Shown here one piece after another: positions 3,895 through 64,000 of a stretch of 64,000 bases of DNA (position 1 is the first letter of the stretch; every line of letters starts with the position of its first letter). Origin of the DNA: an uncultured Bacteroidales bacterium (GTDB lineage Bacteria > Bacteroidota > Bacteroidia > Bacteroidales > FEN-979). Position numbers and translations under genes: made by a program. The stretch is taken from positions 5,690 through 69,689 of the forward strand of contig CAIQUS010000060.1 in NCBI GenBank assembly GCA_903875045.1, given 5' to 3'. Below the pieces are notes generated by a model. That model did not search any database and had not been told where the DNA came from. It saw nothing but the letters and a program-made list of their open reading frames with translations.

Positions 3895-3933
3895 AATTTT
3901 AGATTTACGATTTACGATTTACGATTTATGATC
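3895..3933. repeat. Tandem heptamer array (GATTTAC, ~5 units) in the porin-amt spacer
   Basis: aatttta gatttac gatttac gatttac gatttat gatc. Confidence 0.9.
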
Positions 3934-3948
3934 TCTTTTATTCGCATG

Positions 3949-4776
3949 CTACAGTGATAGACCAAATACCAAAAACACACTCTGCGCCTGAGGATTGGTT
4001 ATTACAGAGCCAAACAGGGGCAGAGAATAATCTTTTGTAATGGTGAGGGATTTGGTAATGGTCAATCCGGCATTGATCACCCCGGCTGATGGCCCGTACC
4101 AGGATGAACCAAAGGGAATTCCGCCGACAAATGGTTTGAGTCCGAAACCTTTGACATTAAACTGGTAAGCTGCTTCAAAATAGGTGGAGTAGTTGTTCTT
4201 GTTTCCGGTTCCGTAAACACCAGTAGAATCTTTCCCTTTATCAGCACCATAAACCAGCGTACCCGCGTAGAGTTGCAGAGGGAATTTTTCAGGACCTGCC
4301 CATGACAGGCAAATCTCGACCGTATGACCGGTTGTTTTATTTTTAAAATTGAAGTATTTGTTTCCGTTATTTGGTTCCAGGGAATTAGGCAAAAAGTAAT
4401 CGTAGGCCATAATGGTGAAGCCTTTTAACGTATAAGAAAGGTAAAAATCAACCTCTGCATAATGGCCCATGTTTGCAATCGTTGAATCGTTGATTTGTCG
4501 GGAATACGCTCCAAGACCGTAAGAACCCCAGAAACCGGCTTTGAACCCCGCAACTGAAAAGGCAATAGCCGGCTGAATGGCAGGTGAATTCCCATAATCG
4601 GTACCCCGCCAGATGTAGCGGCTTACCAGGTCGGCACCAGCGCTAAATGTGGCAGCGCTGCTGGTGGTATCTTCCATTTTGTTTTCATCCTGTAACTGGG
4701 CAAATGAAAGCGATGCAAGCGATATAAAAAAAGCTGCAAGTACAATTGATTTGAAAAAGGCTGTTTCCATTTTCAT
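3949..4776 (-). CDS. Putative outer-membrane beta-barrel porin encoded upstream of amt
   Basis: Start chosen at internal Met giving signal peptide 'MKMETAFFKSIVLAAFFISLASLSFAQ'. Alternating aromatic/Gly-rich beta-strand pattern and a C-terminal aromatic-rich strand. Same strand as amt, 56 nt upstream. Confidence 0.5.
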   Translation of the reverse strand: MKMETAFFKSIVLAAFFISLASLSFAQLQDENKMEDTTSSAATFSAGADLVSRYIWRGTDYGNSPAIQPAIAFSVAGFKAGFWGSYGLGAYSRQINDSTIANMGHYAEVDFYLSYTLKGFTIMAYDYFLPNSLEPNNGNKYFNFKNKTTGHTVEICLSWAGPEKFPLQLYAGTLVYGADKGKDSTGVYGTGNKNNYSTYFEAAYQFNVKGFGLKPFVGGIPFGSSWYGPSAGVINAGLTITKSLTITKDYSLPLFGSVITNPQAQSVFLVFGLSL

Positions 4777-4790
4777 TGCGATGTGTTTTT

Positions 4791-4816
4791 TGTTAATAAT
4801 TTCACATGCAATATTA
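4791..4816 (-). promoter_or_regulatory. TAATATTG box followed by a CRP/FNR-type palindrome (TGTGAAATTATTAACA) just upstream of the porin-amt operon
   Basis: Minus-strand reading is taatattg-ca-tgtgaaattattaaca, ending 14 nt before the porin ATG. There is one half-site mismatch to TGTGA-N6-TCACA. Confidence 0.4.
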
Positions 4817-4985
4817 CCACAGCCGGATTGTTCACACAATCCTGTAAACTACTGAATTTTAATAAGCTAAAACCGGGGGAAATACTACGTGGTTTCCGTA
4901 GGTTCAAAAGGGCAAACTCTTATGCAGCAGGGCGATTTTATATCGGAGATATCGTCAAAAATAATCCTCCGGCTTTCCATCATGG

Positions 4986-5645
4986 TTAAATTTCCACAAT
5001 TTTGTTCCTGATGGCATATTTAATCAGTTCAACGGTCGACTTCAGCTCCAGCTTTTTCATAATATGGTTTTTATGGGTTTCCACCGTACGGATACTGATA
5101 TCCAGCTGATCGCTGATCTCCTTGTTGATAAAACCTTCGGCAAATAGTTTTAGGATTTCTATCTCTCTGGTAGTAAGTGAAATGGAATTCCCAGGGGAAG
5201 TCATGTCATCTTCCTTTGCTTTTCGTACATAACTTTTCAGCATGATACGTGAGATGGAATCCGAAAAAAACTCTTCCCCTTCGTAAATGGCATGAATGGC
5301 ATTCAGGAGTTCCTCCCTGGAGGTGTTTTTTGGCAGGTAACCGCGGGCGCCTGCTTTTACCGAATTAAAAATGAAATCCTCATTGGTGTACATGGAGAGA
5401 ATGAGTACCCTGGTGGCAGGATACTCTGCTGAAATCCGTTTGGTGATCTCAATGCCATTGGTATCAGGTAATGAGATGTCGAGGATAAGGATATCGGGTG
5501 GTTCAATGGCAATTTTTTCAAAACACTCTCTGCCTGAGGAGGCTTCTCCCAGAATATGGAGTTCTTCGGCACTGATCAGCAACGATTTAATTCCATCCCT
5601 GACAAGTTGGTGGTCATCAACGAGAAAAATTCTGATTTTTGGCAT
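4986..5645 (-). CDS. NarL/LuxR-family two-component response regulator (REC + HTH_LuxR)
   Basis: 219 aa. 'IFLVDDHQLVRDG', 'ILILDISLPDTNG' and a C-terminal 'LTTREIEILKLFAEGFINKEISDQLDISIRTVETHKNHIMKKL' LuxR HTH. Confidence 0.9.
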   Translation of the reverse strand: MPKIRIFLVDDHQLVRDGIKSLLISAEELHILGEASSGRECFEKIAIEPPDILILDISLPDTNGIEITKRISAEYPATRVLILSMYTNEDFIFNSVKAGARGYLPKNTSREELLNAIHAIYEGEEFFSDSISRIMLKSYVRKAKEDDMTSPGNSISLTTREIEILKLFAEGFINKEISDQLDISIRTVETHKNHIMKKLELKSTVELIKYAIRNKIVEI

Positions 5646-7422
5646 AAGTTGTAATAATTGGTACTTTTAAAATGATTGTTGTTCCCTGCAAAGGGGTAGA
5701 GCGTATATCTATTTGTCCTTGTAATAAAATTGCCCGTTCACGCATGTTGTGAATTCCGTTTCCACTGTTGTTTACAATGGTTTCGGGTGAGAAACCTTTG
5801 CCGTCATCGCAGATCATCAGGGTCAGCAGGTCAGTGTCAAGGTAAAGGGTAACTTTCACCTCACGGGCTTCGGCATGTTTTACAATGTTATTCAAGGCCT
5901 CCTGTGTTAGTCTGTAAATATAGGTTTTAATCTTCTTATCCAGTTCGTCAAAATTTCCTTTGGCTTCAAAATGAATACGCAAGCCACTGTGTTCTTCCGT
6001 TTCAGAAAAGAGGTTTCTGAAAGCGATTGGTATACTGAAAACTTCAAGAACAGAAGGCATGAGATTGTTCGAAATACGACGGACTTCATCGATAATCTGA
6101 TCAAAATAGTTCTTCAATTCCTGGATGGAGTTCCTGATGTCTTTCCCATCCTGATACAATAAATTTTCCAGTCGTAGTTTGATTGCTATGAGCGACTGCC
6201 CGATACCATCGTGCAGCTCGCGCGACAAACGCTGGCGTTCCATCTCTTCACCGTCAAATACCGATTGAATCCTTCCGAATCTTTCGCTTTGGAGTTCAGT
6301 GGTTTTCTCTTTGATCTGTCGGGCCATGATGTTAAAGGAATTGGTAAGTGACCCGATCTCATCCCGGGTGTTGACAGGGAGGTCGATGTCGTAAGTGCCT
6401 TTTCCCAGGTTAACGGTTGCATCCCGAAGCAGGATCAGTGGTTTGGTGATTCGTCGGGAAATGAACCAAACCAGTGCAAAAAATATGACCATGATGATTA
6501 CGCTCAATAACAGAATACGCGTACGTGTCTCGTAGATCGGGATCATCGCCTCTTTAAGGTCTATTTCGGCCAGAATCGCCCAGTTCAGTCCGGGAACATC
6601 AATCAAACTATAGGATGAAAGCACCGGCACCCCGCGGTAATCATTGGTTGCAATGGCACCCGAAATACCGCTGATTGCATCTGTAGCCGATTGTGTTTTA
6701 ACTAAGGTCCGTAAGATGGAATTTGGCTGGAACCTGGAGGTTGACCGCATCAGATAATCCGGGCCCACCAGGTAAGTCTCACCACTTGACCCAAGGCCAT
6801 TCAAAGGATCATTGTTCAGCATGATGGTGTTAATTGCCTGAATTGAAACCGCAAGAATCAGGATAGTTCCACCAGATTTGTTGTCTTTCGCGGGGCTGTT
6901 AGTTTTGATGGCGATCAACTGAAACGGTTCCCCATTGTGTTTATCTGTTAAGAAGTCGGTAATAACCACGTTCCTGTCGTTCACTTGTGCCCTGAGTGCC
7001 GATAAAATATTTTCTGGGATTACAGGAGGGCAAACAACAAGGGTGTCATTTACGCCACCCTTCATTAAAATCCCTTCTCGCCCCAGGATGTAGAATGCTG
7101 TGAAATAATTTCCCGGCAACCGGAGCGCTGCGATGAGTTTCTCCCACTCCCGGTGGCTCCTGCCTTCATCCGTTAAAGGTGAGGTGGGTGGAATGGAGCC
7201 TGCCATCATGGCCAGCAAGGTGATATCCCTTGTCCTGTCGGCATAGAATTGCCTGATTTGATTTTTTTTTACGATCCGGAGAGAAGTAAGCTGATCAAAG
7301 GTGCGGCTCATCAGCGCTTCCCTGGTGTTGTAAAAGGAGACGGTCGTGATGATCGTGATGGAGCCAATACCCAATAATACAAAGTATAGAATTAGTTTCT
7401 CGGTAAGCGTGCTGACCTTCAT
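5617..7422 (-). CDS. Sensor histidine kinase (extracytoplasmic Cache-like domain, HAMP, HisKA_3, HATPase_c)
   Basis: 601 aa with two TM segments flanking a ~270-aa periplasmic region. 'LSRELHDGIGQSL' HisKA_3 H-box and 'GNGIHNMRERA...GTTIILKVP' ATPase motifs. Overlaps the cognate regulator by 29 nt. Confidence 0.85.
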   Translation of the reverse strand: MKVSTLTEKLILYFVLLGIGSITIITTVSFYNTREALMSRTFDQLTSLRIVKKNQIRQFYADRTRDITLLAMMAGSIPPTSPLTDEGRSHREWEKLIAALRLPGNYFTAFYILGREGILMKGGVNDTLVVCPPVIPENILSALRAQVNDRNVVITDFLTDKHNGEPFQLIAIKTNSPAKDNKSGGTILILAVSIQAINTIMLNNDPLNGLGSSGETYLVGPDYLMRSTSRFQPNSILRTLVKTQSATDAISGISGAIATNDYRGVPVLSSYSLIDVPGLNWAILAEIDLKEAMIPIYETRTRILLLSVIIMVIFFALVWFISRRITKPLILLRDATVNLGKGTYDIDLPVNTRDEIGSLTNSFNIMARQIKEKTTELQSERFGRIQSVFDGEEMERQRLSRELHDGIGQSLIAIKLRLENLLYQDGKDIRNSIQELKNYFDQIIDEVRRISNNLMPSVLEVFSIPIAFRNLFSETEEHSGLRIHFEAKGNFDELDKKIKTYIYRLTQEALNNIVKHAEAREVKVTLYLDTDLLTLMICDDGKGFSPETIVNNSGNGIHNMRERAILLQGQIDIRSTPLQGTTIILKVPIITTYAKNQNFSR

Positions 7423-9873: not shown

Positions 9874-11130
9874 TTGAAAACGAAAAAGTTTCTTACCCGG
9901 ACAGTACTGCTCGTATCGTTTGTGAGCCTTTTCACCGATATTGCCAGTGAAATGCTTTATCCGATCATGCCTGTTTACCTTAAATCGATAGGGTTTTCTG
10001 TTTTACTGATAGGGATTCTGGAAGGAGTGGCTGAGGCAACCGCCGGGTTAAGCAAGGGTTATTTCGGGCATCTCTCGGATATCAAAAAACGGCGTGTTCC
10101 ATTTGTGCGTGCCGGTTATATGCTGAGTGCCTTTTCAAAACCCATGATGGCCGTTCTTACCTTCCCGTTATGGATATTTTTTGCCCGGACCCTCGACCGG
10201 TTTGGCAAAGGAATCCGAACAAGTGCCCGCGATGCCATGTTAAGTGACGAAACTACCCCGGAGCACAAAGGAAAAGTGTTTGGCTTTCACCGTTCGATGG
10301 ATACAACCGGCGCTGCCATTGGGCCAATTCTGGCTTTGATCTATCTGTGGTTTTATCCCGGCCAGTACAAATGGATGTTCGTCATAGCATTCGTTCCCGG
10401 CCTCATCGCCATTGCGCTTACATTTTTATTGAAGGATAAGGTTACAGGGTCACAGGGCCACAAGGTCACAGGGCCACAAGGTCACAGGGTCACAAAGTCA
10501 CAAGGTCGCCACATCATCACATCATCAAATCATCATATCGGCTTTTTTTCCTATTTGAAATACTGGTCGCGTGCTTCCTCCGGATTCAGATTTCTGGTTG
10601 CAGGGTTACTTGCGTTTACTCTTTTCAACAGCTCCGATGCTTTCCTTCTGCTGGCACTTAAAGAGCAAAACCTTTCCGATACCATGATGATCGGTGTTTA
10701 TATCTTTTACAATCTTGTTTATGCATTTTTTGCATATCCGGTTGGCGTCCTTGCCGATCGTATCGGGCTCAGAACCATGATGATCATCGGTCTTTTCCTC
10801 TTTGCCTTTGTTTATACAGCCATGGGATTTGCCTCCACCCTGACCATTTTCGGCCTACTCTTTTTTCTATACGGGATTTATGCCGCCTGCACCGAAGGAA
10901 TATCCAAGGCGCTCATCTCGAACATGGCAGATCAGGCCGATACCGCCACCGCCATAGGGTTCTTTAACAGCCTGGCAAGCATATTCACCCTACTTGCAAG
11001 TTCATTGGCCGGGGTGCTGTGGTACTCCATCGGGCCAAAGGCCATGTTTATGATTTCAGGGATCGGGGTTTTTGCGGTGGCGTGTTACCTGTTGTTTGTT
11101 TGGAACCACTTCACAGTGAGAAAGGTATGA
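9874..11130 (+). CDS. MFS transporter carrying a 32-codon repeat-derived insertion in its central loop
   Basis: 418 aa, TTG start, 12 predicted TM segments in a 6+6 layout. The loop segment 'VTGSQGHKVTGPQGHRVTKSQGRHIITSSNHH' is encoded by 12 tandem octamers. Confidence 0.8.
   Translation: MKTKKFLTRTVLLVSFVSLFTDIASEMLYPIMPVYLKSIGFSVLLIGILEGVAEATAGLSKGYFGHLSDIKKRRVPFVRAGYMLSAFSKPMMAVLTFPLWIFFARTLDRFGKGIRTSARDAMLSDETTPEHKGKVFGFHRSMDTTGAAIGPILALIYLWFYPGQYKWMFVIAFVPGLIAIALTFLLKDKVTGSQGHKVTGPQGHRVTKSQGRHIITSSNHHIGFFSYLKYWSRASSGFRFLVAGLLAFTLFNSSDAFLLLALKEQNLSDTMMIGVYIFYNLVYAFFAYPVGVLADRIGLRTMMIIGLFLFAFVYTAMGFASTLTIFGLLFFLYGIYAACTEGISKALISNMADQADTATAIGFFNSLASIFTLLASSLAGVLWYSIGPKAMFMISGIGVFAVACYLLFVWNHFTVRKV
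10441..10536 (+). repeat. Tandem octamer array (12 units, 96 nt) inside the MFS coding sequence, in frame
   Basis: gttacagg gtcacagg gccacaag gtcacagg gccacaag gtcacagg gtcacaaa gtcacaag gtcgccac atcatcac atcatcaa atcatcat, read directly from the sequence. Confidence 0.95.
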
Positions 11131-15196: not shown

Positions 15197-15216
15197 CCAG
15201 GCCTGATCGCCGGATT

Positions 15217-15257
15217 TTCTAATTTCTAATTTCCAATTTCAACTTTCCAAATTTCCC
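15217..15257. repeat. Tandem heptamer array (TTCTAAT, ~6 units) between convergent genes
   Basis: ttctaat ttctaat ttccaat ttcaact ttccaaa tttccc. Confidence 0.9.
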
Positions 15258-50092: not shown

Positions 50093-50095
50093 CAA

Positions 50096-53541: not shown

Positions 53542-53565
53542 AAAACATTTATTTATGTGGCTAAA

Positions 53566-53708
53566 GCCACAGATGTAATTTGCAATCCAAAACAGTTGGC
53601 TAAAGCCAACTGCAATAGATGAAGTGCTCAGAATGATGAATATCTATTGCAGCCAACTTCAGCTGACTGTTTGCAATGACAGCTTATGAGAATAGGGGCT
53701 TTAGCCCC
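53566..53708. repeat. Cluster of nested palindromes sharing a GGCTAAAGCC core in a convergent intergenic region
   Basis: tgtggc-taaa-gccaca (53566-53581), cagttggc-taaa-gccaactg (53593-53612), ctgcaatagat...atctattgcag (53610-53620 with 53642-53652) and ggggc-ttta-gcccc (53695-53708, the same core on the minus strand). Confidence 0.8.
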
Positions 53709-53717
53709 ATTTATATG

Positions 53718-56522: not shown

Positions 56523-56575
56523 GACAGGGGCAGTTTTTGTGAGTGTTAAATCGGCCATAAAGCTACGACTTTTTT

Positions 56576-56651
56576 CTGATCCTGCGCACCTGATCCCACG
56601 CACCTGGCATCGCGCACCCCATGGGCCTGGCATCGCGCACCTAACCCCACG
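56576..56651. repeat. 14-nt (2x7) tandem repeat array in the divergent M16 / sufS promoter region
   Basis: ctgatcctgcgcac ctgatcccacgcac ctggcatcgcgcac [cccatgggc] ctggcatcgcgcac ctaaccccacg. Confidence 0.85.
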
Positions 56652-56668
56652 ATTAAGCGTGGGGTTAG
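56641..56668. other. 11-bp stem hairpin at the end of the 14-nt array
   Basis: ctaaccccacg-attaag-cgtggggttag checked base by base. Confidence 0.7.
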
Positions 56669-56694
56669 ACACAGTCCGCTATCTCTAACTTTCG

Positions 56695-56702
56695 TACTTT
56701 TG
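56695..56702 (+). promoter_or_regulatory. Candidate -7 box (TActTTTG) for sufS
   Basis: tacttttg lies 18 nt upstream of the ATG at 56720. Confidence 0.45.
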
Positions 56703-56719
56703 CAATCTAATCCCAAAGC

Positions 56720-57940
56720 ATGAGTTTAAACATCGAGCAAATAAGAGCTGACTTCCCGATTCTCCACCAGCAGATATACCGGCGCCCGCTGATCTATTTC
56801 GACAACGCGGCATCGACACAGAAACCTAGACTGGTCATTGACGCCATCCGGCACTATTACGAACACGATAACTGCAACATCCACCGCGGGGTGCATTACC
56901 TGAGCGTGAAAGCAACCGAGGCCTATGAGGAAGCACGAAAGGAGATCCAAAGATTTATCAACGCGAAAAGCACACATGAGATCATATTCACCAAGGGCGC
57001 CACGGAATCATTGAACCTCGTGGCTTCCTCTTTTGGGAAACGGTACATCCAAAGGGGTGATGAGGTGATTACCAGCATCATGGAACACCACTCAAACTTT
57101 GTTCCATGGCAGCAGATGTGCCTTGAACGCGGGGCTACTTTGCGTGTATTGGGTATCAATGAACATGGTGAGCTTGATCTGGATGAGCTGAAAGACCTGT
57201 TGAATGAAAAAACCCGGCTGATCGCGGTAACCCATGTGTCAAATGTGCTCGGAACCATCAATCCTGTAAAGGAAATCGTTGGTTTGGCGCATCAGCATGG
57301 CATCCCGGTACTGCTCGACGGTGCGCAGGGTGTTTCACATCTGCCGGTGGATGTGCAGGATCTTGATTGCGACTTCTATTGTTTCTCCGGGCATAAGATG
57401 TATGCCCCTATGGGAACAGGCGTGATGTATGGCAAGGAAAAATATCTTGAGGAATTGCCACCATACCAGCTTGGAGGCGAAATGATTAAAGATGTTTATC
57501 TCGATCATACCACCTTTAATGAATTGCCCTTCAAATTTGAAGCTGGTACACCCAACGTGGAAGGGGTGATGGGGATGAAGGCCGCCATTGCTTACCTGCA
57601 GCAACTCGGAATGGATAATATTGCGGCTTATGAGGAGCGGTTACTGAAATATGCAACCGAGCAATTGTCGGCAATCGAAGGAATTAAATTTTACGGTACT
57701 GCTCCGCACAAGGCCAGCCTGGTTTCATTTATCATCGGGGATATTCATCCTTATGATGCAGGTATGATCATCGATAAAATGGGAATAGCGGTCCGTACAG
57801 GTCATCATTGCGCCATGCCACTGATGGATTTCCTTAAAATTCCCGGAACGGTGAGAGCTTCTTTCGCATTTTACAATACCATGGAAGAGGTTGACCAATT
57901 GATCGCAGCCATTCATAAAGCGAAGGCGATGCTCACTTAA
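56720..57940 (+). CDS. sufS: Cysteine desulfurase, SufS subfamily (class V aminotransferase)
   Basis: 406 aa. 'FPIL......IYFDNAASTQKP', 'HHSN', 'SGHKMYAPMGTGV' (PLP lysine) and 'RTGHHCA' (catalytic Cys). Confidence 0.9.
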   Translation: MSLNIEQIRADFPILHQQIYRRPLIYFDNAASTQKPRLVIDAIRHYYEHDNCNIHRGVHYLSVKATEAYEEARKEIQRFINAKSTHEIIFTKGATESLNLVASSFGKRYIQRGDEVITSIMEHHSNFVPWQQMCLERGATLRVLGINEHGELDLDELKDLLNEKTRLIAVTHVSNVLGTINPVKEIVGLAHQHGIPVLLDGAQGVSHLPVDVQDLDCDFYCFSGHKMYAPMGTGVMYGKEKYLEELPPYQLGGEMIKDVYLDHTTFNELPFKFEAGTPNVEGVMGMKAAIAYLQQLGMDNIAAYEERLLKYATEQLSAIEGIKFYGTAPHKASLVSFIIGDIHPYDAGMIIDKMGIAVRTGHHCAMPLMDFLKIPGTVRASFAFYNTMEEVDQLIAAIHKAKAMLT

Positions 57941-57959
57941 AGGGGTTCCCCTGTGATCT

Positions 57960-59591
57960 TTATTTTCTGATCGTTTCCGCAGATACAGAATCTGCTTTGG
58001 CTTTGCGCTCATCAGCACCCTGATTCACTTCAATCCCGTTTTCGGTCATTTGAAAAGTGGATTCATCTGAGGAATTTATCATGTAATACCAAAATAATTT
58101 AAGTTTTTGGAACTCGGGGGTGAAATGGATGTATTTCCCCCTGGGAACCCTGATAATCACATCGATGATTTGACCACGCCAGCATTCTTCCTTGGGAAGT
58201 CGCAGAAACGGACTGATTTTCAGTGTTGACCCTGATGTGGCTGATTGGAAACGGAGCGCAGTGAGGTGTTGATGTGCCTCCAGCCTGGATTTTCCGCGGG
58301 CCATGGCAACTTGTGTAATGGAAAACAGGCTGTCATTCGATTCTTCAATCTGAATTTTTGGCAAAACATACAACTCCTTGTCTTCTGAAATGATCGTTTT
58401 CCAGTCAGCGAGTAAAATATATTGATCGTTGTCGAGATACTTCATGCCGGGATCATCCTGGAACATAGAAACGAACAGGGTATCGCAATCCGGTTTTTCA
58501 AGTGCGATATCAATTTGTTTTTTGTCATCAAATTTATATAGGTTGTAAATTTTCAGCGCCGATGATGCAAGGAAAAAGAGGGCCAAAACCCAGATGTTGA
58601 ACATGGTAAGCCCAAGATGCCTGATCCGGTCAAAACGGAATACCATCCGCAGTCCGTTGTAAAAAAGCATCAATAATGGAATGCCCAATACCATCAGAAG
58701 GATTACCTGCAAAAACCCAACAGGCATATTGCATCCGATCAATAATTTTGCGAGTTCAGGAAAGGCAAGAACAGTGAACTCATTATCAGAATAAAGTCCG
58801 CCGGTCCATCCAAGTGTGTAGGCAAGCAGGGCGACAAGTAAACTAAGCCCGATGATGATCAGGATTATACCGGAAAGGATAACCAGTCCTCTCCCGAAAA
58901 AAGCCAGAACCTCAACAACTCCTTTTCCGATTACTTCAAAAAAGGATCGTGACCCTGCCCCGGCCCGTTTGACTGTTGCGGCAGATTCACTGGCCATTTG
59001 TCCGATCTGACCGCGAAGTGCAGAGATCTCTTTCCGCATGGATTCTTCGATGCTGGAGATGTTGACTTTTTTGCCACGCATCTCCAGTTTGTCGGTGGTT
59101 GACTGAGCTTCCGGGATGACAAACCAGAGAACGAGGTACAACAGGAAGCCGGAACCTCCGGCCGCAATAAATATGATGAAAATCAACCTTACCCATACCG
59201 GATCAAGGTGGAAGTATGCTGCAATACCAGAGCAAACACCGGCGATGATCTTTTCATCGGGATTCCTGAAAAACCGCTTATTTCCTTTTTCTGTGTCTGG
59301 TGATTGATTGTTGGACTGTGGGTTCTCCTCCGGGTCAATTTCAACCGGTTGTCCCATAATGGCAATGACCTCCGCCACCTCTTCCAGGGTAATAACCTGT
59401 TTCGTTTCTGAGCGTTTCTCATTCAGTATCTCAGCGATACGCGATTCGATGTCATTCAGGATATCCTGGTATCCTTCCTCCTGGCTGAAATGTTTTTTCA
59501 GGTTTTCAAGATATTGGTTCAAGGAAATATAGGCATCCTCATCAATGTGGAACACAATCCCGCCAAGGTTTATCGTCAGTGTTTTTTTCAT
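57960..59591 (-). CDS. PspC-domain membrane protein
   Basis: 543 aa. 'RFFRNPDEKIIAGVCSGIAAYFHLDPVWVRLIFIIF' is a PspC domain, followed by several TM segments and a long C-terminal region. Immediately downstream of padR. Confidence 0.75.
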   Translation of the reverse strand: MKKTLTINLGGIVFHIDEDAYISLNQYLENLKKHFSQEEGYQDILNDIESRIAEILNEKRSETKQVITLEEVAEVIAIMGQPVEIDPEENPQSNNQSPDTEKGNKRFFRNPDEKIIAGVCSGIAAYFHLDPVWVRLIFIIFIAAGGSGFLLYLVLWFVIPEAQSTTDKLEMRGKKVNISSIEESMRKEISALRGQIGQMASESAATVKRAGAGSRSFFEVIGKGVVEVLAFFGRGLVILSGIILIIIGLSLLVALLAYTLGWTGGLYSDNEFTVLAFPELAKLLIGCNMPVGFLQVILLMVLGIPLLMLFYNGLRMVFRFDRIRHLGLTMFNIWVLALFFLASSALKIYNLYKFDDKKQIDIALEKPDCDTLFVSMFQDDPGMKYLDNDQYILLADWKTIISEDKELYVLPKIQIEESNDSLFSITQVAMARGKSRLEAHQHLTALRFQSATSGSTLKISPFLRLPKEECWRGQIIDVIIRVPRGKYIHFTPEFQKLKLFWYYMINSSDESTFQMTENGIEVNQGADERKAKADSVSAETIRK

Positions 59592-59614
59592 GGATTATTA
59601 TATTGTATGTAAAG

Positions 59615-59944
59615 TCAGTTAATTCCGATTATTTTTTCTACCGATCCGATCAAATCCTGCCAATCGGCGGTCAGCCCTGCCAGGTATTTCATACCCGTTT
59701 CGGTAATCTGGTGGTATTTTCGCGGAGGCCCCGATTTCGACTCTTCCCAGCGATACACCGTGAGCCCGTCGTTTTTCAGCCGTGTGAGCAACGGGTACAA
59801 GGTTCCTTCAACAACGATGAGTTTTGCTTCCTTTAACTTCGTGATGATGTCGGAAGCATAAGCGTCCTGTTTTGCGATGATCGCCAGGATACAGAGTTCG
59901 AGGACTCCTTTTCGCATCTGGGCATTTTGGTTTTCTGTGTTCAT
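59615..59944 (-). CDS. PadR-family transcriptional regulator
   Basis: Start reset to 'MNTENQNAQMRKGVLELCILAII'. 'GTLYPLLTRLKNDGL' is a winged-helix PadR signature. Confidence 0.85.
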   Translation of the reverse strand: MNTENQNAQMRKGVLELCILAIIAKQDAYASDIITKLKEAKLIVVEGTLYPLLTRLKNDGLTVYRWEESKSGPPRKYHQITETGMKYLAGLTADWQDLIGSVEKIIGIN

Positions 59945-60015
59945 GCGGCAAAGGTAATATAATTTTAGTACTATGCAATGCAAGGTAGTATAATTTATGA
60001 TTTTTTAACAGAAGA

Positions 60016-60141
60016 GTGGGCGAGTGGACGAGTGGGCGAGTGGGCAGGTGAACGGGTTGACGGGTGAACGGGTGAACGGGTAAACGGGTAGACGGGCGAA
60101 CGGGTAAACGGGTAAACAGGTGGACGGGTGAACAGGTGTGG
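60016..60141 (+). repeat. Tandem octamer array, G-rich orientation, ~15.75 units (left arm of the four-helix-bundle cassette)
   Basis: gtgggcga gtggacga gtgggcga gtgggcag gtgaacgg gttgacgg gtgaacgg gtgaacgg gtaaacgg gtagacgg gcgaacgg gtaaacgg gtaaacag gtggacgg gtgaacag gtgtgg. Confidence 0.95.
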
Positions 60142-60205
60142 ATAAAAGTTATTAACAAAGGGCTTACTTTAATCATTTTTTCTGATAAAGCATTAAATAA
60201 AAGCA

Positions 60206-60556
60206 ATGTATGCACATAAAAAGTTATCTTTATGGCAGGGGAGTATGGATCTTGCGGTAATTGTTTATCGGGTTACAGCCGGATTCCCGAAATCCGAAAT
60301 GTTTGGATTATCAAGCCAGGTCAGGAGATCCGTAGTATCAATTCCAGCAAACATCAGTGAAGGAGCAGGCCGTGGCAGACCGAGAGAATTTATCAGGTTT
60401 CTAAGAATATCAAATGGTAGTCTTTCCGAACTTGATACACATTTGGATCTGGCTTTCCGACTCAATTATATCGAAGCGGAGACCTTTAACGATCTCACGG
60501 GCAAAATGAGAAAAATCAGTGCACAAATTTCCGGTTTGATCAGATCACTGGAATAA
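60206..60556 (+). CDS. Four-helix-bundle protein (23S rRNA intervening-sequence protein / S23p family, the fold family of DGR Avd)
   Basis: 116 aa. 'LAVIVYRVTAGFPKSEMFGLSSQVRRSVVSIPANISEGAGR....EFIRFLRISNGSLSELDTHL' is the characteristic signature of this family. Confidence 0.85.
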   Translation: MYAHKKLSLWQGSMDLAVIVYRVTAGFPKSEMFGLSSQVRRSVVSIPANISEGAGRGRPREFIRFLRISNGSLSELDTHLDLAFRLNYIEAETFNDLTGKMRKISAQISGLIRSLE

Positions 60557-60573
60557 AAACCAAAATATCATTT

Positions 60574-60645
60574 CACCCGTTTACCTGTTTACCTGTTTAC
60601 CTGTTTACCTGTTTACTTGTTCACTCGCCCACTCGTCCACACATT
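60574..60645 (+). repeat. Tandem octamer array, C-rich orientation, 9 units (right arm, mirror image of 60016-60141)
   Basis: cacccgtt tacctgtt x4 tacttgtt cactcgcc cactcgtc cacacatt. 60622-60640 is the exact reverse complement of 60024-60042 (19 nt). Confidence 0.95.
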
Positions 60646-60650
60646 TTCCT

Positions 60651-60658
60651 TAACTTTG
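60651..60658 (+). promoter_or_regulatory. Candidate -7 box (TAacTTTG) for sufE
   Basis: taactttg lies 21 nt upstream of the ATG at 60679, directly after the array. Confidence 0.4.
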
Positions 60659-60678
60659 CTCCTTAAATATAGCCTCCT

Positions 60679-61104
60679 ATGACCATCCCAGAAAAAGAAT
60701 CCCAAATCATCACCGAGTTCGCCATGTTCGACGACTGGATTGATAAATACAATTACCTTATTGAACTTGGGAAAACACTTAACGTGATCGAAGAACAGTA
60801 TAAAACAGACCAATACCTGATTACCGGATGCCAGTCGAAGGTGTGGCTTCACGCATCCATCAGGGAAGGCAAGGTGGTTTTCACCGGCGACAGCGATGCC
60901 ATCATCACAAAAGGGATTGTGAGCCTGCTGATACAGGTGCTTTCCGATCAAACCCCCGATGAAATCATCCAGGCAAAACTGGAATTTATCGACAAGATCG
61001 GTTTGCAGGAACACCTCTCACCAACCCGCAGCAACGGACTTTCGGCGATGATCAAACAGATGAAACTTTATGCCACTGTATTTAAAATGAAACGCGGAAA
61101 CTAA
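60679..61104 (+). CDS. sufE: SufE-family cysteine desulfuration (sulfur acceptor) protein
   Basis: 141 aa. 'DWIDKYNYLIELGK' and 'ITGCQSKVWL' (persulfide-accepting Cys) motifs. Confidence 0.85.
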   Translation: MTIPEKESQIITEFAMFDDWIDKYNYLIELGKTLNVIEEQYKTDQYLITGCQSKVWLHASIREGKVVFTGDSDAIITKGIVSLLIQVLSDQTPDEIIQAKLEFIDKIGLQEHLSPTRSNGLSAMIKQMKLYATVFKMKRGN

Positions 61105-61108
61105 CTAA

Positions 61109-61150
61109 AACCGTTCACACCTTTATCTCCACCCGTTACCCGTCCACCCT
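61109..61150 (+). repeat. Degenerate C-rich octamer array after the sufE stop
   Basis: ccgttcac acctttat ctccaccc gttacccg tccaccct. The 8-nt phase is weak but recognisable and the words are shared with neighbouring arrays. Confidence 0.5.
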
Positions 61151-61156
61151 ATAATT

Positions 61157-61240
61157 CCGTACCTACGGCACGGAAAATGGTTATGATCTATGACTGGCTA
61201 CCAAAAGTTGGCTCCTACGGAGCCGGAAGGTAAATTTGCC
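61157..61240 (+). repeat. 84-nt double-hairpin element, copy 1
   Basis: Hairpin 1 is ccgtacc-tac-ggcacgg and hairpin 2 is ggctcc-tac-ggagcc, 53 nt apart. 72 of 84 positions are identical to copy 2, and both hairpins are 100% conserved. Confidence 0.85.
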
Positions 61241-61242: not shown

Positions 61243-61346
61243 CCACTCGTCCACTCGTCCACTTGCCCACTCGTCCACTCGTCCACTTGCCCACTCGCCC
61301 ACTCGTCCACTCGCCCACTTGCCCACTCGCCCACTCGCCCAACTGA
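61243..61346 (+). repeat. Tandem octamer array, C-rich, 13 units, abutting the ATPase stop codon
   Basis: ccactcgt x2 ccacttgc ccactcgt x2 ccacttgc ccactcgc ccactcgt ccactcgc ccacttgc ccactcgc x2 ccaactga. Confidence 0.95.
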
Positions 61347-62470
61347 TCACCCTAAAACCTCCGGATAATTCTTCCGATTAACTTCCCTGAATGTGAAAGG
61401 TTGATATTCTTTGCTAAAACTTTCAGGTATCCGGATTCTCTTTGATGGACTCCATTTAAACTCAAAAGCCTCAAATTCGGCATTTTTTTCCCGCACCAGG
61501 TCAACTTCCTGTTGCTGGTGTGTCCGCCAGAAATAATAAGAGGCGATATTGTCCTCATATTGATCTTTCTTGATGATTTCGCTAACGAGGTAGTTCTCCC
61601 ACAATTTTCCGGTATCATCACGTAATGCAAGTGGGTTGAACTGATTGATCAGGGCGTTTCTTATACCGTTGTCCCAAAAATAGACCTTTCGGGATTTCTT
61701 TATTTCATTGCGTTGATTCCTTGCAAGTGATGGCAGTGTGAAAATTACAAACGACTTTTCCAGAAGATCGAGGTAGCGGATCACGGTATTCCGGTCGCAT
61801 CCTGCAGTTTCTCCCAATTCGGTGAGGGAAACTTCACCGGTGATCTGGAGTGCAAGTGCTTTCAATATTTTGGGAATGATGCTGGGTTTTCTGACCGAAT
61901 CCAATGACAAAATATCCTTGTACAGGTAATCTCCTGCAAGTTCATGAAGGAGCTTTGGCTTTTCCAGTTGTGAAAGAACAATTTCCGGATACATGCCGTA
62001 AATTAGCCGCTGTTCAAGCAGCCGGTTTTCTTCCATTTCCGAAAAAGCCCCGGTCAGTTCTGAATAAGAAAACGGGTGAAGTTGAAACTCAAGTTTTCTT
62101 CCGGTAAGCGGCTCGTGAATAGTGTCCCGTAACCCCAGTGCAGAGGATCCTGTGACAATCAGTTGAATATCCTTCAGATGATCAGTAATCAGTTTTAGTG
62201 TAACGCCAATGTTTTGAATCCGCTGTGCTTCATCGATGATCAGCAATTCCTTGTTTCCAATCCTGTGCTTGAGTTCTGTCGAACCTGGACGGTTGAGAAA
62301 CTGTTCCACATCCGGTTCATCACAATTCAGGAATAAAAATGATTTTCCGATGATTTTGCCAATTCCAGCGCCAGTGTTGTTTTCCCGACCTGCCGTGCAC
62401 CGGTGATGTGAACTGCTTTCCCACTGAAAAGGTATTTTTCAATGACCGCCTGAAGCTTCCTCTGAATCAT
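61347..62470 (-). pseudogene. AAA+ ATPase (AAA_14 + DUF4143 type) interrupted by a -1 frameshift in a homopolymer
   Basis: The N-terminal 47 codons 'MIQRKLQAVIEKYLFSGKAVHITGARQVGKTTLALELA...' (Walker A) stop at 62327-62329. The +2 frame continues 'KIIGKSFLFLNCDEPDVEQFLN...IIDEAQRI...' into the 320-aa ORF. The switch maps to the A4 run at 62354-62357. Confidence 0.75.
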
Positions 62471-62532
62471 AATATATGAATTAATTCACAAGTTTAATAT
62501 AAAATTCATGAATAGGTTCCTATATTTTAATA

Positions 62533-62572
62533 AATGGCGAAATGTCGAAATGGCGAAATAGCGAAATCAGAT
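62533..62572 (+). repeat. Tandem octamer array (AATGGCGA type, 5 units)
   Basis: aatggcga aatgtcga aatggcga aatagcga aatcagat. This is the reverse complement of the CCATTTCG word family. Confidence 0.9.
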
Positions 62573-62587
62573 TTCCTGTAAATAATC

Positions 62588-62671
62588 CCGTACCTACGGC
62601 ACGGAAAATCATTATAATTACTGACCGGCTATCAATATTTGGCTCCTACGGAGCCGAAAGGTAAATTCGCC
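62588..62671 (+). repeat. 84-nt double-hairpin element, copy 2
   Basis: Same two hairpins with the same 53-nt spacing as copy 1. It is flanked by inverted arrays (62533-62572 and 62663-62694). Confidence 0.85.
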
Positions 62672-62766
62672 ATTTCGCCATTTTCCCATTTTCCCTGTTT
62701 ACCCGTTCACCTGTTTCCCTTTCCACCTGCCCACTCGCCCACTTGCCCACTTGCCCACCTGGTCAC
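62663..62766 (+). repeat. Tandem octamer array, 13 units, with a stepwise gradient of unit types, abutting the oxidoreductase stop codon
   Basis: aaattcgc catttcgc cattttcc x2 ctgtttac ccgttcac ctgtttcc ctttccac ctgcccac tcgcccac ttgcccac x2 ctggtcac. Confidence 0.95.
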
Positions 62767-63407
62767 CTCCTCAACAATTTAAACGCATGTCCCCACTCAT
62801 TCCTGAGAAATCCCGGGATACACCACAACATACACAGTGGTTCAATAGCTCTTGCAGCCTCAACCGCACCCATATCCTCAGTTTCCCAGCCAAACTGGCC
62901 GAGGATGGCAGTTACCTGTCTTTTTGCCTCCGGATCGTTACCGCATATAAACATGGATGGTTTGATCCCGCCGAAATCGGGGTTGATCATAAAGTTGTTT
63001 CCCACGCTGTTAAAGGCTTTAACAAACCGTGCTTCGGGCACCACCAACTGCAACTGTTCCATCTGGGAACTGCCGAGATTGGTGTAATATTGCAGTACTC
63101 CGTTCACGGGGGCAGCATCGGCAATAGGATTCGTGGTATCAATCACGATCTTTCCTCGAAAATTGGTAATACCCGCAAGTTGGAGGGCTGCTTCTGCCAT
63201 GTTTCCTTTTACGGCAAGGACGATGATTTCTCCGAATGCAGCAGCATCTCTGAAGCTCCCTGTAACGGCATTGTTCGTTTTGAGCCATTCAGCCAGTTTC
63301 GAAATGTCTCTTGTGCCCAGCATTACGTCATATCCGTGTTTCAGGAAGCCACTTCCCAGCATCTGGGCGACAACGCCTGAACCTAAAATTCCGATTTTTG
63401 TTTTCAT
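62763..63407 (-). CDS. NAD(P)-binding oxidoreductase (NADPH-dependent F420 reductase / ProC-like Rossmann family)
   Basis: 214 aa. The N-terminal 'KIGILGSGVVAQMLGSGFLKHGYDV' dinucleotide fold and overall similarity recalled to NpdG-like proteins. Confidence 0.7.
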   Translation of the reverse strand: MKTKIGILGSGVVAQMLGSGFLKHGYDVMLGTRDISKLAEWLKTNNAVTGSFRDAAAFGEIIVLAVKGNMAEAALQLAGITNFRGKIVIDTTNPIADAAPVNGVLQYYTNLGSSQMEQLQLVVPEARFVKAFNSVGNNFMINPDFGGIKPSMFICGNDPEAKRQVTAILGQFGWETEDMGAVEAARAIEPLCMLWCIPGFLRNEWGHAFKLLRR

Positions 63408-63456
63408 TGTTTTTGAAGGTTTGGTTTATGATTGGTTAGTATACTTGGGTTTGTTG

Positions 63457-63507
63457 GCAAGTGGGCGAGTGGGCGAGTGGACAAGTGGACGAGTGGGCGG
63501 GTGGGGG
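63457..63507 (+). repeat. Tandem octamer array, G-rich orientation, ~6 units
   Basis: gcaagtgg gcgagtgg gcgagtgg acaagtgg acgagtgg gcgggtgg ggg. Confidence 0.9.
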
Positions 63508-63630
63508 AAATTAGTTGTTCCTGGATTTCCACCCGGCAATTACCTCTTTCAAATGAACCCTTCTCTGTTGGCAAAGGAGGAGAGTTTTTGGGGTAAAGTG
63601 TTGTATGTCCTTCCGAGCGCATGGATCGAT

Positions 63631-64000
63631 TCATGAAGAAGTATTATTATCCCCATGTGTCCACCTGCCCACTCGTCCACTCGCCCACTTGCCCACCTTT
63701 TTCCTTATCCTCCCGACCACCGAAAACCTCGACATATCTATCAGTTTATGATTCAGCAGATAGGTAATCACCCTTTTTTCGATTTCATGGTGGAGCGGAA
63801 GGAGGATTGCTATGAGAAAAATTTTAATAAGCAGTACTTTCCAGGGTTCGCCATGAGTGATCTCTTCTATCCTGTGATCAGCCAGTAAAATAATGAACTC
63901 AAAGAGGAAGATGAATGAGAAGAAACCCAGCATCCTGATGATCCACTCGGGAACCTTCAGGCTCCCAAGCATGATCAATAATACAAATGCCGAAAGGATC
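63631..64000 (-). CDS. C-terminal fragment of a membrane protein; reading frame is open to the window edge and its last ~16 codons lie in an octamer array
   Basis: There is no in-frame stop between 63978 and 64000. Two hydrophobic helices are visible. The tail '...KKVGKWASGRVGRWTHGDNNTSS' is translated from the array at 63653-63700. Confidence 0.35.
   Translation of the reverse strand, partial: ILSAFVLLIMLGSLKVPEWIIRMLGFFSFIFLFEFIILLADHRIEEITHGEPWKVLLIKIFLIAILLPLHHEIEKRVITYLLNHKLIDMSRFSVVGRIRKKVGKWASGRVGRWTHGDNNTSS
63653..63700 (+). repeat. Tandem octamer array, C-rich orientation, 6 units (inverted partner of 63457-63507)
   Basis: ccatgtgt ccacctgc ccactcgt ccactcgc ccacttgc ccaccttt. Its reverse complement has the same unit order as 63457-63507. 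Confidence 0.9.

Follow-up and report, generated by a model that had tools for sequence, protein, structure and literature searches.

Strand-asymmetric octamer arrays, their hairpin arms and an embedded PF05635 gene in an uncultured Bacteroidales bacterium

The window analysed here is a 64,000-nucleotide stretch of contig CAIQUS010000060.1 (assembly GCA_903875045.1, positions 5,690 to 69,689) from an uncultured Bacteroidales bacterium, and it is rich in short tandem arrays, most of which have a unit of eight nucleotides. The window arrays are variants mostly of one strand-asymmetric consensus, which reads YYYACYYG on the pyrimidine strand. Taken together with loci retrieved from other genomes (given below by their L numbers), they are probably best regarded as one family of strand-asymmetric short tandem repeats shaped by slippage and concerted evolution, with a hairpin of two inverted arms as the working unit and with copying between loci as the source of shared sequence. 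The array type is not specific to Bacteroidota. Some of the hairpins enclose a gene of the family PF05635, in an association that is asymmetric: these genes usually lie in tandem-repeat hairpins, and the arrays rarely carry the gene.

Arrays in the window and their consensus

Tandem Repeats Finder (TRF) at a score of at least 40 reports 17 arrays in the 64-kb window, 11 with period 8 and three with period 7 or 14. Fifty third-order Markov simulations of the window yield a mean of 1.58 arrays overall and 0.14 (maximum 1) with a period of 8, 16 or 24. With units of the 5-11-nt class repeated head to tail over lengths above compositional expectation, the arrays qualify as long simple sequence repeats (SSRs). 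The heptanucleotide is not their characteristic unit, as period 8 predominates and period 7 is confined to 3892-3932 and 15216-15255. Neither are they CRISPR arrays, which have 24-48-nt repeats and unique spacers of similar length, since the units here are 7-9 nt long and contiguous, without spacers. Every array listed by a first-pass annotation of the window was found again, by TRF and by reading, at the same place or a few bases away; the tract at 51601, described there as an irregular 8-10-nt array, proved to be an inverted pair of 9-nt repeats (51601-51678). An assembly artefact is ruled out by the 125-nt array at 60014-60138, which is base-for-base identical in three independent metagenome assemblies. 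The arrays are dispersed, mainly intergenic and of few unit types per genome. They are not spread evenly over the window but clustered, nine of them lying within 60.0-63.7 kb. Against the Pfam-annotated genes they are intergenic with the sole exception of 10438-10539, which lies within an MFS gene and is read in frame.

When the octamer units of the 60-64 kb region are set out in 8-nt register, all of them conform to YYYACYYG (TTCACCCG, TTTACCTG, CCCACTCG, TCCACTTG), and in one array the unit shifts gradually, without loss of register, through the series TTCGCCAT, TTTCCCTG, TTCACCTG, CCCACTCG. Four consecutive YYYACYYG units match 22 times in the window and not once in 100 shuffles, with A4, C5 and G8 as the near-invariant unit positions. 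The asymmetry extends beyond this consensus. In a set of 42 arrays, unbiased in that it comprises the window arrays and loci fetched for other reasons, one strand of nearly every octamer unit combines six purines with two pyrimidines (purine fraction 0.75 or 0.25), and the mean asymmetry is 0.221 compared with 0.143 for the null. The earlier impression that unit words differ widely was therefore overstated, as most octamer units are YYYACYYG or, more broadly, combine six purines with two pyrimidines.

The sharing of words among unlinked arrays, also reported in the first pass, is well founded. Among array segments more than 400 nt apart, compared on either strand, 21 of 161 pairs have an exact 8-mer in common; permutation of the unit columns leaves 3.2 such pairs on average and never more than 9. 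The named examples were recovered as well, namely ATCATCAC/GTGATGAT and the word CCATTTCG, which is found at 47.7 kb and 62.67 kb and as its complement at 62.53 kb.

One explanation that the asymmetry brings to mind is non-B DNA (G-quadruplex, i-motif or H-DNA) acting on replication or transcription. Purine/pyrimidine asymmetry favours triplex-prone DNA. The window contains five G-quadruplex (G4) motifs of G3-N5 spacing where 0.5 are expected, four of them within arrays, and G4 formation in vitro is documented for the Xanthomonas and Nostoc heptamers (PMC4692102). As a common denominator, however, the G-quadruplex is enriched in the window and impossible for many other genomes, whose dominant units (CAAGTAGA, CAGGTAGA, CAAGTAAA, TAGCGAA) have no G-runs, and an account by non-B DNA is highly improbable.

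The arrays of the window and the features associated with them are as follows.

3892-3932, unstranded: heptamer array GATTTAC/TTTACGA x5 (TRF), between ammonium-transporter and Gcw_chp genes, both on the minus strand.
10438-10539, plus strand: octamer arrays AAGGTCAC x9, then CACATCAT x4; they add 35 in-frame residues to an MFS transporter (gene 9874-11130), in its central loop.
15216-15255, unstranded: heptamer/14-mer array TTTCTAA (TRF, Pfam), between convergent genes for a beta-helix protein with a type IX secretion system (T9SS) tail and a TonB-dependent receptor.
47667-47706, plus strand: octamer array RCCATTTC x4, plus strand pyrimidine-rich, directly past the stop of gene 46000-47667.
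49271-49318, plus strand: octamer array TAATGTGA/TGATGTGA x6, filling the sufB-sufC spacer; the mRNA strand is purine-rich and stop-rich.
51601-51678, unstranded: inverted pair of about 9-nt repeats, CACTAAGAA... and TTCTTAGTG..., between sufD and a MutS2-like gene.
56576-56668, unstranded: 14/23-nt array with CCCACG in its units, and a REP-type hairpin with an 11-bp stem, CTAACCCCACGattaagCGTGGGGTTAG (TRF, hairpin scan); upstream of sufS.
60014-60138, plus strand: 5' arm of the IVP cassette, purine-rich, with four outer units of GAGTGGGC followed by eleven inner units of GGTGAACG/GGTAAACG.
60164-60191, plus strand: leader/promoter-like motif, TTACTTT-N13-GATAAAGC, ahead of the IVP start and without a second match in the window.
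60206-60556, plus strand: gene for a PF05635 '23S rRNA intervening-sequence protein' (IVP), a four-helix bundle (Pfam E = 1e-36); cargo of the hairpin loop.
60569-60645, plus strand: 3' arm of the IVP cassette, pyrimidine-rich, with five inner units of TTTACCTG followed by two outer units of YCCACTCG.
61105-61150, plus strand: degenerate pyrimidine-rich octamer tract 3' of the sufE stop.
61151-61240, minus strand: 85-90-nt double-hairpin element, copy 1 (tips CC-TAC-GG), terminator-like; downstream of a DUF4143 ATPase gene.
61243-61341, plus strand: longest array, (YCCACTYG) x12, adjoining the stop of the minus-strand DUF4143 gene (61347).
62532-62567, plus strand: purine-rich arm AAATGGCG x4.5; partner of 62666-62691 around copy 2 of the 85-nt element.
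62582-62671, minus strand: 85-90-nt double-hairpin element, copy 2, terminator-like; downstream of an F420-type oxidoreductase gene.
62663-62770, plus strand: composite pyrimidine-rich array, TTCGCCAT, then TTTCCCTG, then TTYACCYG, then CCCACTYG; ends in the minus-strand TGA stop of gene 62763-63407.
63446-63511, plus strand: purine-rich arm GGCGAGTG x6 of an inverted pair.
63650-63704, plus strand: pyrimidine-rich arm GCCCACTC x4, partner of 63446-63511 across a loop of about 140 nt.

Distribution and unit sharing within genomes

A probe of 4.5 YYYACYYG units, run against one genome per species (185,579 species), matched at least 115 stretches, and the results of this section and the partner counts of the next refer to the matches listed. 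They place octamer arrays in at least eight phyla. The matches in Bacteroidota come from Bacteroidales, Saprospiraceae, Prolixibacteraceae and a Hymenobacter plasmid; others come from Rubrivirga, Chloroflexota, Gemmatimonadota, Planctomycetota, Cyanobacteria, Betaproteobacteria, Acidobacteriota and Verrucomicrobiota. Named carriers are Hymenobacter qilianensis JCM 19763, with an array on a plasmid (L054), and Nodosilinea LEGE 06152 (L032). The arrays have 5-30 units, the genomes range from 34 to 74 % G+C, and in those of moderate G+C content the arrays are packed tightly between genes.

Each genome has its own dominant unit, which is identical in 18 of 23 pairs of loci from the same genome and in 5.2 % of pairs from different genomes (p = 2e-19). 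As unlinked arrays of one genome share their unit, a copying or homogenising process at the level of the genome is implied. Together with the shared consensus and period, this agrees with the first-pass suggestion of a common process rather than a series of independent accidents.

Inverted pairs and the polarity of hairpins

Several window arrays are the arms of inverted pairs. The arrays at 60014-60138 and 60575-60640 are 82 % complementary, and further pairs are formed by 62532-62567 with 62666-62691 and by 63446-63511 with 63650-63704. The purine-rich arm comes first in each, and the order purine-rich arm, loop, pyrimidine-rich arm reads alike on both strands. The complementary words that had been remarked upon at unlinked loci have thus to be seen in two parts: exact sharing does exceed the null, but many of these words are simply the two arms of inverted pairs of fixed polarity.

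The same polarity recurs beyond the window. About a quarter of the arrays have an inverted partner within 300 nt, which lies on the 5' side of the pyrimidine arm in 23 cases and on the 3' side in one, while distant control segments give a partner match in 1 of 118. Extending the search to 3 kb changes the counts to 23 and 3, with most partners less than 100 nt apart. Of 31 hairpins recovered by a TRF-based search, 27 have a purine-rich arm on the 5' side, and not one has a pyrimidine-rich arm there. The two arms also co-vary, since those of the IVP cassette are 82 % and 79 % complementary within a genome and 73 % across genomes, with orthologous arms 66-67 % identical.

The loop enclosed by the arms may hold a few nucleotides, a terminator-like double hairpin or a PF05635 gene. 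The double hairpin is an element of 85-90 nt, present in two window copies that are 86 % identical, each with two hairpins whose tips read CC-UAC-GG. In both copies the hairpins score as terminators on the minus strand, 3' of the DUF4143 and F420-type reductase genes respectively. The element has no family match in Rfam, and as a widespread core it fails, with only the two window copies and none in the 124 loci searched (loci fetched later were not searched). In Gemmatimonadota, non-array cores of 50-300 nt lie 0-30 nt from arrays and recur between loci and genomes. Those of about 80-300 nt (L048 1200-2000; L015, L016, L049, L064, L078, L093, L103) contain GGGCtaaaGCCC-type hairpins and are bracketed by TTCACCCG-type arms, and L048 has two tandem copies of the arrangement [G-arm]-core-[C-arm].

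Slippage, persistence and turnover

Gain and loss of units at orthologous loci, a comparison called for in the first pass, was observed as whole-unit differences of 24, 8 and 7 nt. Loci L119 and L122, which stem from different metagenomes and are syntenic with window positions 1-11 kb, have no mismatch over 21,236 nt, and their sole difference is a 24-nt gap of three octamer units in the MFS-loop array, which keeps the frame. L128 differs from the window by one 8-nt TTTACCTG unit fewer in the 60575-60621 arm, again with no mismatch over 652 nt, and the co-occurring strains L215 and L216 differ by one 7-nt unit. The arrays hence have the copy-number instability in whole units that is typical of long SSRs. 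As these indels occur in otherwise identical sequence, the gain and loss of units outpaces point substitution, which is what slipped-strand mispairing leads one to expect. Within genes, the only changes seen preserve the frame (three units).

Over longer distances the arrays keep their position and change their sequence. At the site of the MFS-loop array, the 30 orthologues compared (70-84 % identity) have other in-frame 8-aa repeats or a short loop. Related arrays occupy the spacer between the ammonium-transporter (amt) and Gcw_chp genes and the junction between the peptidase stop and the MFS start in L119 and L124, the spacer array in L119 being (TTTACAATTTTAGA)2.4. The most extensive series comes from the junction between the coxIII stop and the next gene in eleven related genomes (L145, L147-L152, L154, L157, L158, L164/L165; positions about 230-345), where the array is (TAGCGAA)n, (AAATAGCG)n, (TAGTGAA)n, (GTGAATC)n or (AAATGGTG)n, with period 7 or 8. 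About half of these have a complete hairpin and L150 is nearly arrayless, and the stop of the upstream gene always lies within the first unit of the purine-rich strand. Such retention of position, with the unit and even the period (7 or 8) replaced and homogenised, is concerted evolution.

It might be supposed that each locus slips independently, with no common cause, and that period and composition merely reflect the motifs on which polymerase slips most easily. Slippage is clearly active, as the 24-, 8- and 7-nt indels attest, the period drifts between 7 and 8 at one site, and a mutational bias could explain the occurrence of purine/pyrimidine asymmetry in unrelated lineages; a proposal by Mrazek, as summarised in PMC4679880, holds that 7 nt may match the stretch of DNA contacted by polymerase. 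Independent events do not account for the identical dominant unit in 18 of 23 same-genome pairs (5.2 % otherwise), the exact 8-mers common to 21 window pairs (3.2 in the null), the strict polarity of inverted pairs or the non-array cores that recur beside arrays. Independent slippage without a common cause is accordingly very unlikely.

Two other assemblies of the same species, L125 (1-114) and L127 (1-22), carry the sufE-proximal arm (window 60586 onward) joined to other left flanks, which in L125 consist of the end of a histidine-kinase-like gene and a short purine-rich arm. These junctions represent either ectopic recombination between arrays or chimeric assembly.

Stop codons and gene ends

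The two strands of an array differ in coding capacity. No frame of the pyrimidine-rich strand has a stop, since the two purines of its unit are always kept apart. On the opposite, purine-rich strand every unit contains T-R-R (TGA, TAG, TAA or TGG), and almost every unit a stop. Adjacency to stop codons at 47667, 49271, 61346 and 62766, pointed out in the first-pass annotation, was confirmed, and in three of these four arrays the stop lies in or beside the first unit of the purine-rich strand (sufB at 49271, whose TAA stop is the start of the first unit, and the minus-strand genes ending at 61347 and 62763). A start at a stop codon is nevertheless not a special feature that calls for a mechanism of its own, because T-R-R is found in almost every purine-rich unit and an abutting array will itself supply the stop.

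On the simplest interpretation, the terminator codon comes from the array itself wherever one has grown up to a gene end with its stop-rich strand towards the gene, and inside genes only the stop-free strand can survive, as in the loop of the MFS transporter (gene 9874-11130; Pfam MFS_1), whose coding strand is the stop-free array strand. Among the gene ends counted at 71 arrays from genomes of at most 62 % G+C, those that meet the purine-rich face outnumber those at the opposite face by 35 to 12 (p = 0.001, all stops counted), and for 15 gene ends of this set the stop falls within the first three units. An array may furnish a start codon too. An (AAATAGCG)n array across the 4-nt junction of the M1-peptidase and MFS genes (about 9975-10010 in L119, L122 and L124; 9854-9880 in the window) serves both genes: the peptidase gene takes its TAG stop from it and the MFS gene, from the word AAATGGCG, its ATG, and many orthologues therefore start with MAK.

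The IVP cassette and other PF05635 genes

The cassette at 60014-60645 has the form of an rRNA intervening sequence (IVS), with a PF05635 open reading frame (ORF) inside terminal inverted repeats. The whole ORF is enclosed by a predicted stem of about 66 bp (minimum free energy -234.8 kcal/mol, z = -8.8), and in the IVP-sense RNA 65 of 66 positions pair (54 Watson-Crick and 11 G.U). The cassette is not inserted in a 23S rRNA helix (9, 25 or 45) and lies instead between padR and sufE; neither rRNA nor any Rfam family was found in the window at gathering thresholds. Relaxed thresholds bring up miRNA-precursor models only, and the weak matches at the 63650-63704 pair reflect its long hairpin. The IVP gene holds the same padR-sufE position in the related species L130 and L133. 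In L130 (5166-5963) its arms are built of another octamer, in 22 and 12 units, and in L133 they have only 2-5 degenerate units. L132, considered as an empty site for the cassette, is a larger deletion that has removed pspC, padR and IVP and has left a 5' piece of pspC and a piece of the pyrimidine arm.

The counterpart of this cassette is the 23S rRNA IVS of Coxiella burnetii, in which an S23p ORF lies within a stem of terminal inverted repeats. On its 5' side the stem has tandem GACAGAT heptamers, two or three according to strain, and RNase III cuts at the first of them (PMC4990558). Both have a PF05635 ORF in the loop and a 5' arm of tandem purine-rich short repeats of strain-variable copy number. 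They differ in that the window cassette lies in a protein-coding region and in that its arms have 9-22 octamer units as opposed to two or three heptamers. By this analogy the window cassette can be described as an IVS-like module outside rRNA.

As a general neighbour or generator of arrays PF05635 must be rejected, since only 1 of the 115 listed array loci (817 kb) has such a gene, whether a two-sequence or a 26-sequence profile is used. The converse, a PF05635 gene inside such a hairpin, is usual. A profile scan of IMG/VR contigs, where a single-sequence IVP scan of viral contigs had given no match, provided 40 non-redundant PF05635 loci, of which 29 have complementary flanks scoring at least 14, compared with 13 of 120 (11 %) mismatched locus pairs and 9 of 40 for matching in the same orientation. 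The flanking arms are plainly 7-9-nt tandem repeats and are usually purine-rich upstream. Three distant relatives illustrate the range of contexts: next to EF-G, between cheY and cheA, and between rmlB and rmlA, with (GGTGACTG)n/(CAGTCACC)n, (GGAGTAA)n/(TTACTCC)n and (GTTATG.)n/(CATAAC.)n as the respective flanks. PF05635 hairpin loci are found at window 60014-60645, L130 5166-5963, L214 1339-1910, L215/L216 1459-1964, L217 1450-1896 (Sediminicola sp.) and in L218-L262. The literature searched, the coverage of which was incomplete, holds no description of non-rRNA PF05635 genes in tandem-repeat hairpins. The PF05635 genes are lone small genes wedged into housekeeping operons (cheY-cheA, rmlB-rmlA, padR-sufE).

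These observations could be taken to mean that an IVS-like element exists in autonomous form as the PF05635 cassettes, and that the tandem-repeat hairpins without cargo and the solo arrays, which are far commoner, are its non-autonomous or decayed derivatives. The protein, a pentameric four-helix bundle related to Avd, would then recognise the repeats with one unit per subunit and would propagate or homogenise the arrays, possibly together with a Y1 transposase of the RAYT-like kind discussed below. This is quite doubtful; if true, it would give a common origin to repeats of the STRR type (short tandemly repeated repetitive sequences), rRNA intervening sequences and the genes for 'four-helix-bundle proteins' of many phyla.

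A less elaborate proposal along the same lines sees the arrays as phased binding sites in which each 7-8-nt unit accommodates one protein subunit and the genome-specific unit tracks the specificity of the protein. The binding protein might be of the cold-shock-domain or S1 type, with the pyrimidine-rich strand as its target, or it might be the pentameric PF05635 ring; an S23p homologue is a homopentameric toroid according to work cited in PMC4990558, and MacGregor has proposed that S1, Csp or Csr bind TAACTGA arrays (PMC4679880). The near-invariance of A4, C5 and G8, the genome-specific dominant unit and the presence of such repeats around PF05635 genes speak for such binding. A conserved specificity is, however, hard to square with a unit and period that differ at one orthologous site in related genomes, and arrays are also translated inside a gene and have PF05635 nearby at only 1 of 115 loci. 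Binding sites of this kind are an improbable explanation for the arrays.

REP-type hairpins and Y1 transposases

Hairpins of the repetitive extragenic palindromic (REP) type occur in this lineage. In the window a REP-type hairpin at 56641-56668 (CTAACCCCACGattaagCGTGGGGTTAG) directly adjoins the array at 56576-56641, whose units repeat its arm word CCCACG, and in L133 a gene for a Y1 transposase (PF01797) lies just 3' of sufE amid REP-type hairpins, the stems of which (GTGGAC, GCGGAC) are octamer unit words. Relatives of this Y1 gene are bracketed by inverted REP hairpins at 21 of 61 loci, as compared with 11 of 122 controls. Furthermore, the Y1 genes and the IVP genes of the clade have a common upstream motif, consisting of TAT[TC]AC[CT]TTT, about 12 nt, GGATTAAG[CT]A, about 10 nt and ATG (window 60164-60191; L130 about 5395-5440; L133 about 5510-5550 and 6650-6685; L134-L158 about 40 nt 5' of the Y1 starts). 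Its strict core is found at 16 of 70 Y1 loci against a background of 0.01 per 60 nt, and its single occurrence in the window is at the IVP gene. A second hairpin, GGCtaaaGCC at 53593-53612, lies between convergent genes at 53.6 kb.

A transposase of the REP-associated tyrosine transposase (RAYT) type is not supported as a neighbour of the arrays. Around 73 Y1 genes, arrays are depleted rather than enriched (one within 500 nt and 15 farther away), and no Y1 gene was found within 8 kb of the 115 listed array loci or in the window. Nor do the arrays have the form of REP elements or of bacterial interspersed mosaic elements (BIMEs), in that their arms are tandem repeats of 7-9 nt rather than single imperfect palindromes of 20-40 nt, with the one REP-type hairpin at 56641-56668, and in that it is REP hairpins and not arrays that flank Y1. 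The link between Y1 or RAYT and the arrays is a lead, not a result. Of the features of miniature transposable elements with inverted repeats (MITEs), inverted arms are present and recurrent cores occur in Gemmatimonadota, but no target-site duplication or precise empty site was seen.

The lead belongs to a wider explanation, according to which small fold-back elements, mobile and comparable to REP doublets (REPINs) or MITEs, have the arrays as their arms, and the core with its arms, a core being either a REP-type hairpin module or a PF05635 gene, is copied to new intergenic sites by a trans-acting enzyme such as a RAYT-like Y1 (HUH) transposase. Cargo-less hairpins and solo arrays would be decayed copies. 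This would accommodate the two window copies of the 85-nt double-hairpin core with the same array type following each, the Gemmatimonadota cores that recur beside arrays and stand in tandem [G-arm]-core-[C-arm] copies in L048, the PF05635 genes in tandem-repeat hairpins (29 of 40, against 11 % in controls) and the unlinked loci of one genome with an identical unit. It would likewise accommodate the Y1 gene amid REP hairpins near sufE in L133 with stems matching unit words, the bracketing of Y1 relatives (21/61 and 11/122), the REP-type hairpin next to the window array and the leader motif common to IVP and Y1 genes. A precedent may be seen in Geobacter, where paired octanucleotide sites are found with insertion sequence (IS) elements at a fixed distance from them (PMC2700814). 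The explanation meets difficulties in the distribution of Y1 genes described above (one array near and 15 far, none at the 115 loci or in the window) and in the 85-nt core, which is absent from the 124 loci searched (later loci were not searched). Moreover, the arrays and the IVP cassette persist at orthologous sites and change in place, which fits residents better than recent insertions, and neither target-site duplications nor precise empty sites were found, L132 being a deletion derivative. Mobile fold-back elements are, on balance, an unlikely explanation.

Proposed mechanism

The favoured account is that of a single repeat family maintained by slippage and concerted evolution, in which the hairpin would be the working unit. 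When transcribed, the paired arms would form long double-stranded RNA (dsRNA) stems between cistrons and at gene ends, and these may act in the manner of REP/BIME or rRNA-IVS stems, as targets for RNase III, as protectors of 3' ends or as terminators. The function of the hairpin is probably that of an RNase III- or terminator-type RNA structure; the pairing and co-variation of arms, their placement between cistrons and at gene ends, the terminator-like modules and the RNase III precedent are compatible with such a structural role. Polarity and orientation to gene ends may arise at least partly from a translational filter, under which the purine-rich strand, with a stop in every frame within 24 nt, would be tolerated against gene 3' ends and the stop-free pyrimidine-rich strand would be the only one tolerated inside genes. 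The sharing of units across a genome would result from copying between loci, through the movement of small hairpin modules or ectopic conversion, and not from a dedicated synthesising enzyme.

Several results weigh against parts of this account. About three quarters of the arrays have no partner detectable within 300 nt, and the hairpin is thus not the whole story. Selection at the RNA level finds no general support from mismatches on the sense strand, which lean, if anything, the opposite way: G.U mismatches number 3 and A.C mismatches 15 in nine hairpins, in counts that are not independent, and the split per hairpin is 7 to 2 and not significant. Terminator-like sites at 59.9-64 kb amount to 5 compared with 4.4 in shuffles, so intrinsic terminators are not enriched there, though both 85-nt elements score. 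The orientation bias at gene ends stands for all stops (35 versus 12, p = 0.001) but loses significance, at 20 versus 12 in the 71-array set, if only stops preceding the array are counted. The translational filter alone may fall short of explaining a polarity of 27 to 0. As the consensus of the genome scan was imposed by its probe, the scan shows that the type is widespread and not that it is preferred over other octamers. Neither target-site duplications nor empty sites were found.

Genomic setting

The closest proteins to those of the window are annotated proteins from metagenome-assembled genomes (MAGs) of Bacteroidales or Bacteroidota. The suf genes are scattered over 47816-61104 in the order sufB-sufC-sufD, a MutS2-like gene and an M16 peptidase gene (minus strand), sufS, pspC-padR (minus strand), IVP and sufE. 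The genes downstream of sufE are different in every relative (L130, L132, L133), which marks the region as an array-rich hot spot of rearrangement. The minus-strand DUF4143/AAA_14 ATPase gene (61347-62470) has a frameshift near 62310-62345 that places its N-terminal 40 residues, including Walker A, in another frame; either the gene is a pseudogene or an A-run in it was sequenced wrongly. At 22473-22524, within ORF 21966-23081, there is a direct repeat of 25 nt (2.1 copies, 82 % match) that has no sequence relation to the short-period arrays.

Relation to known repeats

The arrays are not a new category. They belong with the prokaryotic long SSRs of 5-11-nt motifs, of which the cyanobacterial STRRs are the classic case and among which heptamers are commonest (Mrazek 2007, via PMC4679880). 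According to the accounts in PMC4679880 and PMC4692102, STRRs and long SSRs are dispersed, mostly intergenic, strand-asymmetric and over-long, with one or a few dominant units per genome, and slippage has been proposed for them. The analogy with STRRs drawn in the first pass is apt, in that the window arrays are likewise dispersed, mostly intergenic and strand-asymmetric with a short non-triplet unit. They differ in a period of mainly 8 instead of 7, in the unit YYYACYYG and in their host, an uncultured Bacteroidota MAG and not a heterocyst-forming cyanobacterium; strict hairpin polarity and gene cargo are no part of the published STRR descriptions consulted.

The heptamers GGGAATC of Xanthomonas and GGGGA(T/C)T of Nostoc are repeated 2-26 times in arrays that lie between genes and number in the hundreds (Rehm et al. 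2015; PMC4692102). In Xanthomonas 70-75 pairs are in 'convergent orientation', and the arrays are transcribed and have no link to IS elements (PMC4692102). These convergent pairs have the same [G-rich arm]...[C-rich arm] layout as the window arrays. The G-run heptamers have been read as G-quadruplex formers and no gene cargo is reported for them, whereas most octamer units outside the window lack G-runs. The statement that no characterised equivalent exists in Bacteroidota was not quite right, as TAACTGA heptamer arrays are known from Beggiatoaceae, Cyanobacteria and five Bacteroidetes (MacGregor 2015; PMC4679880). Those arrays too are intergenic and tight against start or stop codons, with a forward strand that has stops in three frames and overlaps only gene ends. 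They differ in having one fixed heptamer, mostly in 2-6 copies with one inverted case, and have been proposed as translational-regulator sites upstream of starts.

The HOOF-Prints of Brucella consist of one 8-bp unit at eight or more loci, with hypervariable copy number in 8-bp steps (PMC1183211). They resemble the present arrays in the use of one octamer at many loci of a genome and in whole-unit variation, and differ in belonging to Alphaproteobacteria, in another purine/pyrimidine spacing and in serving as typing markers only; hairpin pairing is not mentioned in the description consulted. With the REP/BIME-RAYT system there is a likeness in the dispersed extragenic hairpins, which form mosaics of alternating orientation at gene ends, and in the occurrence of REP-type hairpins and a RAYT-like gene in this lineage. 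The difference remains that REPs are single imperfect palindromes of 20-40 nt and the window elements are tandem arrays, which are not found beside Y1. What appears to go beyond the published descriptions consulted is the octamer consensus and six-to-two rule across phyla, the near-absolute polarity of the hairpins, the turnover of unit and period at fixed sites, the quantified sharing of units within genomes and the regular embedding of PF05635 genes.

Significance

To our knowledge, the short non-triplet tandem arrays recorded in bacteria since 1990 have no accepted mechanism or function, and we know of no function for the PF05635 'four-helix-bundle' genes, which are very common and known mainly from rRNA intervening sequences. 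The present results connect these two orphan phenomena, STRR-like repeats and PF05635 genes, the latter being regularly located in the loops of tandem-repeat hairpins outside rRNA. In practical terms, short-read assemblies break at the arrays, too many ORFs are called on their stop-free strand, and proteins acquire in-frame repeat inserts from them; they are also ready-made strain markers of high resolution. With the connection made, the roles of both STRR-like repeats and IVS proteins become experimentally approachable.

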